A stretch of 32,000 bases of DNA from the NCBI RefSeq assembly GCF_050010295.1, contig NZ_JBEKLH010000001.1, positions 443,358 to 475,357 on the forward strand, written 5' to 3'. Source of the stretch: Methanoregula sp. Its GTDB lineage: Archaea; Halobacteriota; Methanomicrobia; Methanomicrobiales; Methanospirillaceae. The notes beneath the pieces are model-generated. The model did not search any database and was not told the origin of the DNA. It saw only the letters and a list, made by a program, of their open reading frames with translations. The translations under genes were made by a program, and so were the position numbers. The first letter of the stretch is position 1. Each line of letters opens with the position of its first letter. Shown here piece after piece: positions 12,666 to 14,917 of this stretch.

Positions 12666-13094
12666 TCACTGCGGCCTGTTTATCCCGAATACAGCGTCGA
12701 TCCAGGCGGTAATCTCATCCCGGACCCGGCGATATCCTTCGAGAATCTCATCATCAGAACCGGGTGTGAGGTGGGGATCGGGGAATCCCCGGTGAATGGT
12801 TCTTTTGGCGGCATTCACAACCGGGCAGACCTGGCGGGCACGATCGCAGAGCGTAACTGCCAGATCAAAATGCATACCGGATACTGCATCAAGTGTCTTC
12901 GACCGATGGCCCGAGATATCGATCCCGATCTCCTGCATCACAACTATTGCACGTGCACTGACTTTGGACTGGCGGGTGCCGGCGGAAAAGGCCTCGAACC
13001 GGTCGCCATACCTTGTCCGCAGGTAACCTTCCGCCATCTGGGAACGTGCAGCGTTGGCGGTGCAGATGAAGAGGACCCGGGTTTTTTCCGTCAT
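12666..13094 (-). CDS. arsC: arsenate reductase, LMW-PTP / thioredoxin-coupled type (ArsC)
   Basis: 142 aa from the ATG at 13094. P-loop CTANAARS (CX5R) plus a distal CDRARQVC pair (CX6C) match pI258/B. subtilis-type ArsC. The start overlaps the hgcB stop (ATGA). The ORF-track N-terminal extension to 13283 lies inside hgcB. Confidence 0.85.
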   Translation of the reverse strand: MTEKTRVLFICTANAARSQMAEGYLRTRYGDRFEAFSAGTRQSKVSARAIVVMQEIGIDISGHRSKTLDAVSGMHFDLAVTLCDRARQVCPVVNAAKRTIHRGFPDPHLTPGSDDEILEGYRRVRDEITAWIDAVFGINRPQ

Positions 13095-13543
13095 TTTCCC
13101 TCGCAACATGATGACTCTTCTTTGTCCGACCTGCAGCACGACTCCTCGCTTCCTCCACAGCTGCATTCCCCGCTGTCCAGGTCCTTTCCCCTCAGGGCAG
13201 CGCTGATCATCGCCCACGCACACCCGACCCCGCTCTGTACGGTAATTGCCTGAACGGGACAGTTTAAAGCGCAGGCGCCGCACTCCATGCAGGTGGCAGG
13301 ACGGGCGAGGTCGACATGGTCATACCCCTCGGTAAAAACTGCGTGCGGGCAGACCTGAAGGCAGCGTTTGCAGTTGATGCACCGGTCTGGATCAAGTTTC
13401 AGCGTGGTCTCCATATAGGAGTCGAAAAATCCTGCCTGATTCTTCTCCCCGTTGAGGTTTTGAGAAACCTTTCCGGAGTCGGAGAACCCTGATGGCTTGT
13501 TCATCTCACCTGGGTTTTGAGGAACCTTTCCGGAATTGGGCAT
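13091..13543 (-). CDS. hgcB: mercury methylation ferredoxin HgcB (2x[4Fe-4S]), with an atypical repeat-containing N-terminal extension
   Basis: Core sequence METTLKLDPDRCINCKRCLQVCP ... CMECGACALNCP contains the HgcB-diagnostic C(M/I)ECGA. The Cys-rich tail reads ECSCGG..SCC..SSCC. The ATG at 13543 overlaps the hgcA stop (TGATG) and follows the SD-like GGGGTGAT. The alternative core start, ATG 13414, gives 107 aa. The ORF-track extension to 13945 overlaps hgcA and is rejected. Confidence 0.85.
   Translation of the reverse strand: MPNSGKVPQNPGEMNKPSGFSDSGKVSQNLNGEKNQAGFFDSYMETTLKLDPDRCINCKRCLQVCPHAVFTEGYDHVDLARPATCMECGACALNCPVQAITVQSGVGCAWAMISAALRGKDLDSGECSCGGSEESCCRSDKEESSCCEGK
13456..13534 (-). 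repeat. 57-bp-period direct repeat at the hgcA/hgcB junction
   Basis: GGTTTTGAG[A/G]AACCTTTCCGGA occurs at 13456-13477 and 13513-13534 (21/22 identical, offset 57 nt). In the hgcB frame this encodes a 19-aa repeat, SGKVPQNPGEMNKPSGF / SGKVSQNLNGEKNQAGF. Confidence 0.8.
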
Positions 13544-14616
13544 CAGATCACCCCGATAAGACGGCTCACGCCAAGCACTATCCCAAGAATTACCCCGGCA
13601 CCGGCCATGAGTGCCATGACGGGTACGTACCGGAAGATCTCCTTCTTCACACCTGTCCGGGAAGTGAAAGTTGTTGAGCCGGTGAAATTCAGTGCAAGAT
13701 ATGCGGTTACGGCAGGTATGATGAGGAGCGGAGCGAGGGCTCCGGCGGTTGTTGCCCAGCCGGGCAGTGCCGGCGCGGAAGCGAAGGCAATTGCAAACGG
13801 AATTGCCACGACTCCCCCAAGAAGCAACCCTTTTGAGGAGAAGTCCTTTGTCGGGAGAACTGGCAACAGAACCGGGAAGAGTACGGTTCCTGCAATTACC
13901 GCGGCAATGGCTGCAAGTGCAGCGACCGGGCCGGCAAGGAACCAAAGCGTGACGGCGGCAATAATCGCCGGAAGCGCGACATGGATGAGTTCAACAGGGA
14001 TGAGAACGGCGCGATCCCAGAGCGGGAACACCACCCTGCGCATCTCCGGTGTCGCCTTATGCGCTCTGAGATATTCCGGTAGGTCGCGCGCCCGTACCGG
14101 GCCGTATTCAACGGAAAACCCGGATTTGTGCAGGACTTCCGGCCATGAAATTCCCGGTGCCCCGAGCTGGGGCATGATAATCTTCGTATGGCCCACGACA
14201 CCTGCAAGCCCCGTGACTTCGATCCTCCGTACCAGTTCCCCCGTCCCGAACGTTCCCTTGCCCGCAGCGCACCAGACATTGATCCCTTTGGTATCCAGAA
14301 CCAGAATGAACGCATCGTATCCCTCGAGTGCAGAACGGAGAGCATCGAAACTCAGAGTGTAATTTGCCGAAGCAAAGACCGGGGAATCCGGGGTGGGATT
14401 CCCGAGCCGGTACAGGCCGGGCTCCACGCAGTGACCACTCCGGTTCACACCCCAGCGGGCGAGGAAATGGTCGAGCCGGTTAGCGAAGGTAATTGCGCTG
14501 TCAGTTGTCCGAATCTCTGGTGGTGATGAGTGGTTCGTCCCACAATTGCATGACGCGGAACCCTGTCCGGGTGAACCGGCGCAGCGGTTTGATCCGGCTG
14601 TTGGGATCGTATCCAT
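13543..14616 (-). CDS. hgcA: mercury methylation corrinoid protein HgcA
   Basis: The cap-helix signature GINVWCAAGKGTFGT (N(V/I)WCA(A/G)GK) has its Cys codon at 14269-14271. The N-terminal CFeSP-like corrinoid domain is followed by about 5 TM helices. The ATG at 14616 follows GGGGAGAGGGAAAGC (SD-like). The alternative ATG at 14646 overlaps the upstream gene by 14 nt. Confidence 0.9.
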   Translation of the reverse strand: MDTIPTAGSNRCAGSPGQGSASCNCGTNHSSPPEIRTTDSAITFANRLDHFLARWGVNRSGHCVEPGLYRLGNPTPDSPVFASANYTLSFDALRSALEGYDAFILVLDTKGINVWCAAGKGTFGTGELVRRIEVTGLAGVVGHTKIIMPQLGAPGISWPEVLHKSGFSVEYGPVRARDLPEYLRAHKATPEMRRVVFPLWDRAVLIPVELIHVALPAIIAAVTLWFLAGPVAALAAIAAVIAGTVLFPVLLPVLPTKDFSSKGLLLGGVVAIPFAIAFASAPALPGWATTAGALAPLLIIPAVTAYLALNFTGSTTFTSRTGVKKEIFRYVPVMALMAGAGVILGIVLGVSRLIGVI

Positions 14617-14632
14617 GCTTTCCCTCTCCCCT

Positions 14633-14917
14633 TCAGTCGCTTTCATATAGAAGCGGGCCGAGCACGTCTTTTACCATCCCGCTCAGGCTCTCGGCTTTCA
14701 TCAGTGCAAGGCAGCAGACACTGCCATTCTTCTCCCAGCTGATCAGGGCGAGTTTGTCCCCGGTTTTGATCCCGGCTTTCTCACGGACATCCTTGGGGAG
14801 CACCATCTGTCCCCGCTCGTCCACCGAGAGGACCGCTTCGACTTTACAGCCTGATCCCGGTGTGCATCCGCACTCAGCTCCCGGACTACACCCGGTACCG
14901 CTGTTCTTCTTAAGCAT
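14633..14917 (-). CDS. AbrB/MazE/SpoVT-family DNA-binding protein with Cys-rich N-terminal segment
   Basis: The SpoVT-AbrB fold signature VDERGQMVLPKDVREKAGIKTGDKLAL is preceded by GCSPGAECGCTPGSGC, and a VCC lies later. The ATG at 14917 has a GGAG 7 nt upstream and a TATA-like box at about 14950-14963. The ORF-track ATG at 14950 abuts the TATA box. Confidence 0.75.
   Translation of the reverse strand: MLKKNSGTGCSPGAECGCTPGSGCKVEAVLSVDERGQMVLPKDVREKAGIKTGDKLALISWEKNGSVCCLALMKAESLSGMVKDVLGPLLYESD

Follow-up and report, generated by a model that had tools for sequence, protein, structure and literature searches.

A 32,000-nucleotide stretch of DNA from an uncultured Methanoregula sp. (RefSeq assembly GCF_050010295.1, contig NZ_JBEKLH010000001.1, positions 443,358 to 475,357 of the forward strand; hereafter the window) was analyzed around a pair of genes that a sequence-only reading had named hgcA and hgcB, encoding the corrinoid protein and the ferredoxin of mercury methylation. 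The locus consists of four consecutive open reading frames (ORFs), all of them intact, which are listed here from 5' to 3' on their own strand.

14633 to 14917, minus strand: hgcC, encoding a 94-aa AbrB/SpoVT-type HgcAB-associated protein (NF040962, 128.8 bits; cutoff, 70).
13543 to 14616, minus strand: hgcA, encoding a corrinoid protein of 357 aa (NF040863, 439.9 bits; cutoff, 275).
13091 to 13543, minus strand: hgcB, encoding a 2x[4Fe-4S] ferredoxin, most likely of 150 aa (NF040864, 113.2 bits; cutoff, 99).
12666 to 13094, minus strand: an arsC-like gene, encoding a low-molecular-weight (LMW) phosphatase-type arsenate reductase of 142 aa (Pfam LMWPc, E = 2e-18).

Between the hgcC stop and the hgcA ATG at 14616 there are 16 nt, hgcA and hgcB overlap by 1 nt, and hgcB and arsC overlap by 4 nt. 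Family membership was assessed with the curated NCBIfam models and their cutoffs for HgcA (NF040863), HgcB (NF040864), HgcC (NF040962), the HgcAB-like family (NF043039), and the CFeSP (corrinoid iron-sulfur protein) gamma subunit. In this profile hidden Markov model (HMM) search, HgcA and HgcB both scored above their cutoffs, and chance was excluded for both (HgcA_corrinoid, E = 5e-132; HgcB_ferredoxin, E = 4e-33), which upheld the assignment of the pair to HgcAB. We consider it very probable that the locus is an intact HgcAB mercury methylation system, arranged as a tightly packed hgcC-hgcA-hgcB-arsC operon whose genes would be cotranscribed, on the chromosome of an uncultured Methanoregula. 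The source, an uncultured Methanoregula sp. metagenome-assembled genome (MAG), also agrees with the earlier supposition that the host might be an uncharacterized methanogen, and the nearest genomic loci (with approximately 8,000 homologs scored) were all from Methanoregula or Methanoregulaceae MAGs. HgcA was 66 to 79% identical to HgcA of other Methanoregula MAG species representatives, approximately 70% identical to that of a Methanospirillum sp. MAG (L028), and approximately 96% identical to that of a near-conspecific genome, L078, of which the locus had 94.9% nucleotide identity to the window across 4.5 kb. Loci of Methanosarcina and Methanolobus were more distant than those of Methanoregula.

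The features of HgcA that identify it are the following.

14242 to 14286, minus strand: cap-helix signature GINVWCAAGKGTFGT (aa 121 to 135 of a 367-aa form).
13549 to 14001, minus strand: transmembrane domain of five helices, from hydropathy and AlphaFold2.

The 367-aa form would start at an alternative in-frame ATG at 14646 (ORF 13543 to 14646) and would overlap hgcC; a Shine-Dalgarno-like GGGGAGAGGG precedes the ATG at 14616, and HgcA homologs are mostly 354 to 357 aa long. The family pattern, N(V/I)WCA(A/G)GK with a strict Cys, is present in GINVWCAAGKGTFGT, and the codon of the putative cobalt ligand (TGC at 14269 to 14271) specifies Cys116 of the 357-aa protein; the ORF of 357 or 367 aa, the signature, and the Cys codon were thus all found as the sequence-only reading had described them. 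Residues W115, C116, A117, A118, G119, and K120 were invariant among 56 homologs. An AlphaFold2 model built with these 56 homologs in the alignment (mean predicted local distance difference test [pLDDT] score, 77.5) consisted of an alpha/beta domain and, behind it, five long helices, mostly with pLDDT values of 75 to 93. The transmembrane helices (residues 206 to 228, 230 to 253, 259 to 279, 286 to 315, and 323 to 356 in 357-aa numbering) were placed alike by hydropathy and by the model, in line with the prediction of about five such helices behind the corrinoid domain. The corrinoid domain itself, predicted to be of the CFeSP type, was recognized as such by Pfam (CdhD, PF03599; E = 3.8e-10), by PDB sequence search, in which CFeSP large subunits were the sole solved relatives (2h9a and 4c1n; E = 1.4e-11), and by Foldseek. 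No solved HgcA was found by sequence search of the PDB, and the integrative model of HgcA from strain ND132 (9a0b) came up only in Foldseek, where chain 9a0b_A was the top PDB match (E = 9e-19; 323 aligned columns at 42% identity), with CFeSP corrinoid domains next (E = 1e-7; root mean square deviation [rmsd], 3.2 Å).

The cysteine motifs of HgcB are listed next.

13346 to 13381, minus strand: first [4Fe-4S] motif, CINCKRCLQVCP, invariant in 25 homologs.
13256 to 13291, minus strand: second [4Fe-4S] motif, CMECGACALNCP, invariant in 25 homologs.
13220 to 13222, minus strand: codon of Cys108, in GVGCA, invariant in the 25-homolog alignment.
13103 to 13138, minus strand: Cys-rich C-terminal tail with the vicinal pairs C136-C137 and C146-C147.

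Both cluster motifs are of the CX2CX2CX3CP type that the HgcB family requires, and their presence confirmed that the gene next to hgcA encodes a 2x[4Fe-4S] ferredoxin. The expected vicinal cysteines of its tail were found as two CC pairs (codons at 13133 to 13138 and 13103 to 13108), which with C127 and C129 just upstream are among six tail cysteines. Cys108 sits 13 residues past the last cluster cysteine (Cys95), and in HgcB of ND132 the spacing from Cys60 to Cys73 is likewise 13 (PMC7305189); Cys108 is the equivalent of the essential Cys73. Mutagenesis in ND132 showed that Cys93 of HgcA and, in HgcB, Cys73 and at least one C-terminal cysteine (Cys94/95) are required (PMC7305189). An AlphaFold2 model of HgcB (150 aa, 25-sequence alignment) had a mean pLDDT of 40, which is uninformative and is not evidence that the N-terminal extension of the protein (see below) is disordered.

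The ND132 pair (Pseudodesulfovibrio mercurii [Desulfovibrio desulfuricans]; DND132_1056/1057) is the founding and biochemically characterized HgcA/HgcB pair. The window proteins share with it the cap-helix NVWCAAGK with its essential Cys, a CFeSP-like corrinoid domain that is followed by five transmembrane helices, and, as a protein of its own, a dicluster ferredoxin in which the second of two CX2CX2CX3CP motifs is followed after 13 residues by a Cys and, at the C terminus, by vicinal cysteines. They differ from it in having an archaeal host, in an HgcB that is extended at its N terminus by 38 aa of repeat and has a longer tail, with six additional cysteines, and in the upstream gene, which is an AbrB-type hgcC in the window and an arsR-like regulator in ND132. 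The N terminus of the window HgcA carries Cys motifs (RCAG...SCNC), whereas a PCUGP selenocysteine extension has been reported for bacterial HgcA. A selenocysteine extension of the window protein was considered and rejected: its Cys-rich N terminus lies inside a normal ORF, and there was no sign that UGA read-through is needed.

Carried over by analogy from the ND132 enzyme, the mechanism would be as follows. HgcA would be a membrane-anchored corrinoid protein in which, by homology with ND132, cap-helix Cys116 would ligate the cobalt. The two [4Fe-4S] clusters of HgcB would reduce the corrinoid to Co(I), which would be methylated by S-adenosylmethionine (SAM), the methyl donor of HgcAB (PMC11588087), to give CH3-Co(III), the axial ligand being the cap-helix Cys. 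From there the methyl group would be handed on to Hg(II) bound by thiolates of Cys108 and of the HgcB tail, which is flexible and Cys-rich, and methylmercury would be released.

Among methanogens, mercury methylation is confirmed for M. hungatei JF-1 and M. palustris E1-9c, and hgcAB is carried by Methanoregula boonei and M. formicica; in metagenomes from peat, paddies, and wetlands, hgcA is frequently carried by methanogens of the Methanoregula type. Of the methanogens tested, all eight with unfused hgcAB methylated Hg, the one with a fused gene did not, and Methanoregula was among the genera in which hgcAB was commonest (Gilmour 2018, PMC5893877). From its genes, then, we infer a methylating phenotype for the Methanoregula sp. 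MAG. The window shares the hgcC-hgcA-hgcB order and the overlapping hgcA/hgcB junction with hgcAB loci of Methanomicrobiales, which belong to the same order or family, and differs from most of them in its two-unit HgcB repeat, seen in a minority of relatives, and in the direct overlap of hgcB with arsC. The longer order trpA-(DUF333)-ykgJ-like-hgcC-hgcA-hgcB-arsC-malic enzyme recurred in several Methanoregula genomes.

The start of hgcB was assigned by comparison with relatives; the gene carries a repeat directly behind its junction with hgcA.

13418 to 13531, minus strand: two tandem 57-nt (19-aa) units, GKVPQNPGEMNKPSGFSDS / GKVSQNLNGEKNQAGFFDS, in the N-terminal extension of HgcB (repeat search, 70% identity).

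The ATG at 13543 shares one base with the hgcA stop (TGATG) and is followed by 38 extra residues, MPNSGKVPQNPGEMNKPSGFSDSGKVSQNLNGEKNQAGF, and then by FDSY; an internal ATG at 13414, in frame with hgcB, lies 128 nt from the hgcA stop. In relatives, the ATG at which HgcB opens, with M-F-D-S-Y, overlaps the stop of hgcA, and the junction GGGGTGATCTGATG with its Shine-Dalgarno-like GGTGATC is kept; the conserved GGGGTGATC just 5' of the hgcB ATG was read as a Shine-Dalgarno match. Nine independent loci had one or two units, with extensions of 60 to 123 nt that were always a multiple of 3, and in all nine the hgcB frame was free of stops, while the other frames mostly contained stops. One-unit relatives have no Met other than that at the hgcA stop, and in L078 the internal Met at 13414 is replaced by Arg. 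Because of this comparative evidence, the 150-aa HgcB that starts at the hgcA stop codon is most likely the correct form. Public records of identical DNA place the start differently, giving 150 aa in JGI, ENA, and Logan and 137 and 107 aa in NCBI. Public HgcB lengths form a ladder of approximately 112, 131, 150, and 169 aa, for 0, 1, 2, and 3 units. The units are of two related types, and at the end of each stands an FDS-like copy of the N terminus conserved in HgcB; that types A and B are frame-shifted versions of each other was rejected, as same-frame substitutions suffice to relate them. A noncoding repeat or RNA element in the hgcA-hgcB stretch was ruled out by the absence of any Rfam match there, together with the multiple-of-3 lengths, the open frame, and the position of the Met in one-unit relatives. 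A phmmer search with the 44-residue extension against 1.84 billion representatives found no homolog of the repeat outside HgcB; its three matches were all very long proteins, and the one inspected (P0264), which is long, internally repetitive, and without evident relation to HgcB, looks compositional. We found no description of the HgcB N-terminal repeat in the literature searched. The variable-copy 19-aa repeat (0 to 3 units) may tune the docking or the stoichiometry of HgcB.

Upstream of hgcA, hgcC is preceded by two short elements.

14951 to 14959, minus strand: TATA-box-like ATATAAATA, approximately 38 nt 5' of the ATG of hgcC (14917).
14960 to 14979, minus strand: candidate operator TTTTCTGATTTTTCTGAAAA, of two tandem 9-nt units, directly 5' of the TATA box.

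The hgcC product scored above the cutoff of its family and is encoded directly upstream of hgcA; it also matched Pfam MazE_antitoxin, and it contains an N-terminal Cys cluster, CSPGAECGCTPGSGC (CxC-x5-C), and a conserved CC pair. The protein was taken to be 94 aa long with its start at 14917 because the other ATG, at 14950, comes immediately after the TATA box and is not kept in relatives. Among methanogen loci, hgcC lay 5' of hgcA in approximately 50 of 80. Reports already exist of an AbrB/MazE-like gene that lies upstream of hgcA in archaea and of ars genes in the vicinity of hgcAB (Zhang et al. 2023, PMC10349881). In the two inspected Methanoregula loci without hgcC, L003 (5637 to 6002) and L013 (4906 to 5970), a small cupin-domain gene stands directly upstream of hgcA, with an additional divergent ArsR-family gene upstream of hgcA in L013; the cupin upstream module of both loci is free of the TTCTGA element that the hgcC promoters carry. 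Both HgcA (RCAG...SCNCG; 14525 to 14616, minus strand) and HgcC (GCSPGAECGCTPGSGC; 14830 to 14917, minus strand) have Cys-rich N termini that are of low confidence or disordered, and these, together with the internal CC of HgcC, are possible thiophilic-metal binding sites.

The promoter role of ATATAAATA is suggested by the archaeal TATA consensus, and (A/G)TATAAATA occurs at the equivalent position in relatives; the intergenic region from 14951 to 15081 has a GC content of 30%. Transcription is predicted to begin at approximately 14925 to 14930. (A scan for sigma-70 promoters and intrinsic terminators is not applicable to an archaeon and gave background-level counts.) The candidate operator TTTTCTGATTTTTCTGAAAA was unique in the window at up to 3 mismatches (0.02 expected). 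In Methanoregula, Methanosarcina, Methanolobus, and Methanomethylovorans, the TATA box 5' of hgcC is directly bordered by two to four of the 9-nt units or by a palindromic TTCTGA-N4-TCAGAA, and the DNA that flanks the element is not conserved across these genera. When the strict motif was searched as a regular expression over 825 kb of fetched loci, every match fell just upstream of hgcC: it was present in 33 of the 48 loci in which hgcC was itself found by regular expression, as well as in L005 (hgcC found by tblastn), and in none of the 32 loci without hgcC. The exact operator-plus-TATA pattern had 76 metagenome matches, and all 72 that had enough downstream sequence to be assessed were followed by an hgcC homolog within 160 nt, although an exact 25-base pattern mostly recovers orthologous sites; conservation across orders and co-occurrence with hgcC are stronger evidence than these metagenome counts. 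It is possible, and we propose it tentatively, that HgcC is an archaeal regulator of the hgc operon that binds TTCTGA-N4-TC(T/A)GA at 14960 to 14979, next to the TATA box, and that its Cys clusters sense thiophilic metals or metalloids, e.g., Hg(II) or As(III). In the literature searched, the sole prior report (PMC10349881) stops at the toxin-antitoxin-like gene upstream of hgcA.

At the other end of the operon, the arsC ATG overlaps the hgcB stop (ATGA, 13091 to 13094), which suggests translational coupling of arsC to hgcB. ArsC scored 119.1 bits against TIGR02691 (arsC_pI258_fam, the thioredoxin-coupled arsenate reductases), under the cutoff of 174.3; of the marks of that family (LMW-phosphatase fold, CX5R loop, and Cys82/Cys89-type pair), the fold was seen, and Cys11, Cys83, and Cys90 are present. 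The gene lay directly downstream of hgcB in approximately 15 Methanoregula-type loci and not in those of Methanosarcina and Methanolobus. In some relatives (e.g., L053, 7400 to 9364), a C_GCAxxG_C_C redox protein and an SBF/Acr3-type transporter are encoded between hgcB and arsC, and because of these extra genes the arrangement in the window looks like a shortened hgcAB-ars cluster. A 254-aa protein of a relative (P0212; NCBI/ENA, 161.7-kb contig) was considered as a Rosetta-stone fusion of HgcB and ArsC and rejected; its HgcB tail is in the wrong frame, and it is probably a frameshift or assembly artifact.

Four observations weigh against the reading of the locus as an HgcAB mercury methylation system. 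HgcB exceeded its curated cutoff by only 14 bits (113.2 versus 99). The cap-helix residues (111 to 122) were modeled at a pLDDT below 50, and the AlphaFold2 model therefore lends no independent support for a helix there. The strains assayed in PMC5893877 included no cultured Methanoregula. Finally, the apparent translational coupling of arsC places the operon in a metalloid context.

One alternative is that the pair is true HgcAB with mercury methylation as a side reaction, its native function concerning another thiophilic metalloid (e.g., arsenic) or corrinoid-dependent methyl transfer, with HgcC and ArsC as partners. In keeping with this are the ATGA coupling and the arsC-hgcB adjacency in related loci, the redox protein and transporter genes between hgcB and arsC in other relatives, the cupin gene (with an ArsR-family gene in one locus) upstream of hgcA in hgcC-less Methanoregula loci, and, in the literature, the control of ND132 hgcAB by an arsenic-responsive ArsR-like regulator and the occurrence of ars genes near hgcAB. 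However, Hg is methylated by HgcAB purified from ND132 when SAM is supplied (PMC11588087), and arsC, which is adjacent in only some of the Methanoregula lineage, is no general partner. We regard a native role of this kind as unlikely, and it is compatible with a mercury-methylating HgcAB rather than exclusive of it.

Considerably less probable is that the locus is intact but functionally silent, i.e., unexpressed or without cofactor supply, in which case the phenotype would be absent. HgcAB amounts to only approximately 0.0004% of total protein in model organisms (PMC11588087), and hgcA of the closest species-level relative, L078, has a frameshift; but all four window ORFs are intact, their ribosome-binding and promoter elements are conserved, and HgcA is strongly conserved, with a mean column identity of 77% and many invariant residues in the membrane domain among the 56 homologs. 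As a single indel in a single assembly, the L078 frameshift may moreover be an error of sequencing or assembly. In that genome (MFD01231.bin.c.5, the closest species representative) the single frameshift lies at approximately 6440 to 6470, after ...IIVPQLG, and it could reflect either such an error or a pseudogene.

That the pair is a nonmethylating paralog, of the CFeSP (AcsC/CdhE) type or of the fused HgcAB-like type known from Methanococcoides methylutens and Pyrococcus furiosus, is highly improbable and effectively refuted by the HMM scores, for although the corrinoid domain is homologous to that of the CFeSP large subunit (Pfam CdhD; PDB 2h9a, 4c1n, and 4djd; a Rossmann-like domain of approximately 125 residues, 23 to 29% identical) and HgcA partially matched the fused HgcAB_like model, both scores, which were looked for as the refutation that the sequence-only reading had itself named, were under their cutoffs (198.6 bits versus 285 for NF043039; 61.9 bits versus 306 for the CFeSP gamma subunit, with residues 73 to 197 aligned to the last 125 model positions), the cap-helix Cys and the five-helix membrane domain of the window HgcA are both absent from CFeSP, of which the N-terminal [4Fe-4S] domain and TIM barrel are in turn absent from the window HgcA, and hgcA and hgcB are separate ORFs in different frames, unlike the fused proteins, which have homologous corrinoid and ferredoxin modules and are nonmethylating in culture.

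The window proteins are already on record. HgcA was 100% identical to WP_428367776.1/MGD0079480.1, named HgcA; HgcC was identical to WP_428367778.1/MGD0079481.1, already named HgcC; ArsC was identical to WP_428367774.1/MGD0079478.1, already named ArsC; and HgcB is present in GenBank/RefSeq, already under that name, as MGD0079479.1/WP_428367995.1, from the same Methanoregula sp. MAG. The NCBI records of all four identical proteins belong to a Methanoregula sp. MAG, on a 548-kb contig. Since identical proteins are named in GenBank/RefSeq and hgcAB in Methanoregula has been known since 2013 to 2018, the finding as such is already known, and the hgcAB of the window, correctly identified, is an ordinary and already annotated member of a known family.

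Around the locus lie housekeeping genes (2-oxoacid:ferredoxin oxidoreductase, the trp operon, malic enzyme, and truA). A ykgJ-like CxxCxxCC gene (15082 to 15600, plus strand) is divergent from hgcC, and between it and trpA lies a gene for a predicted lipoprotein (15605 to 16192, minus strand) with two tandem DUF333 domains, which are encoded by a direct repeat of 189-nt period (15633 to 16006, 79% identity). A complete trpEGDCFBA cluster occupies 16232 to 22957; its TrpE ORF (21116 to 22957, minus strand) is listed as 613 aa, with Pfam domains only from residue 141, and the true TrpE start is probably further downstream. Adjacent genes for tRNA-Val(CAC) and tRNA-Gly(TCC) were found at 31586 to 31734 (minus strand), with the Rfam gathering score reached by tRNA-Gly only.

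The hgcAB genes are used worldwide as a marker that predicts sites of neurotoxic methylmercury production. Confirmation of this locus adds nothing new to the known distribution of hgcA, the proteins being already annotated, and the modest added value lies in the hgcC-linked promoter element and in the HgcB repeat with its start-site issue. The variable-number repeat could mislead profile or primer work that is based on hgcB. If HgcC does act as proposed, it would supply a protein-plus-DNA-site pair for the question of how hgcAB is regulated in methanogens, and the hgcC-linked promoter element offers a testable handle on the archaeal regulation of mercury methylation.

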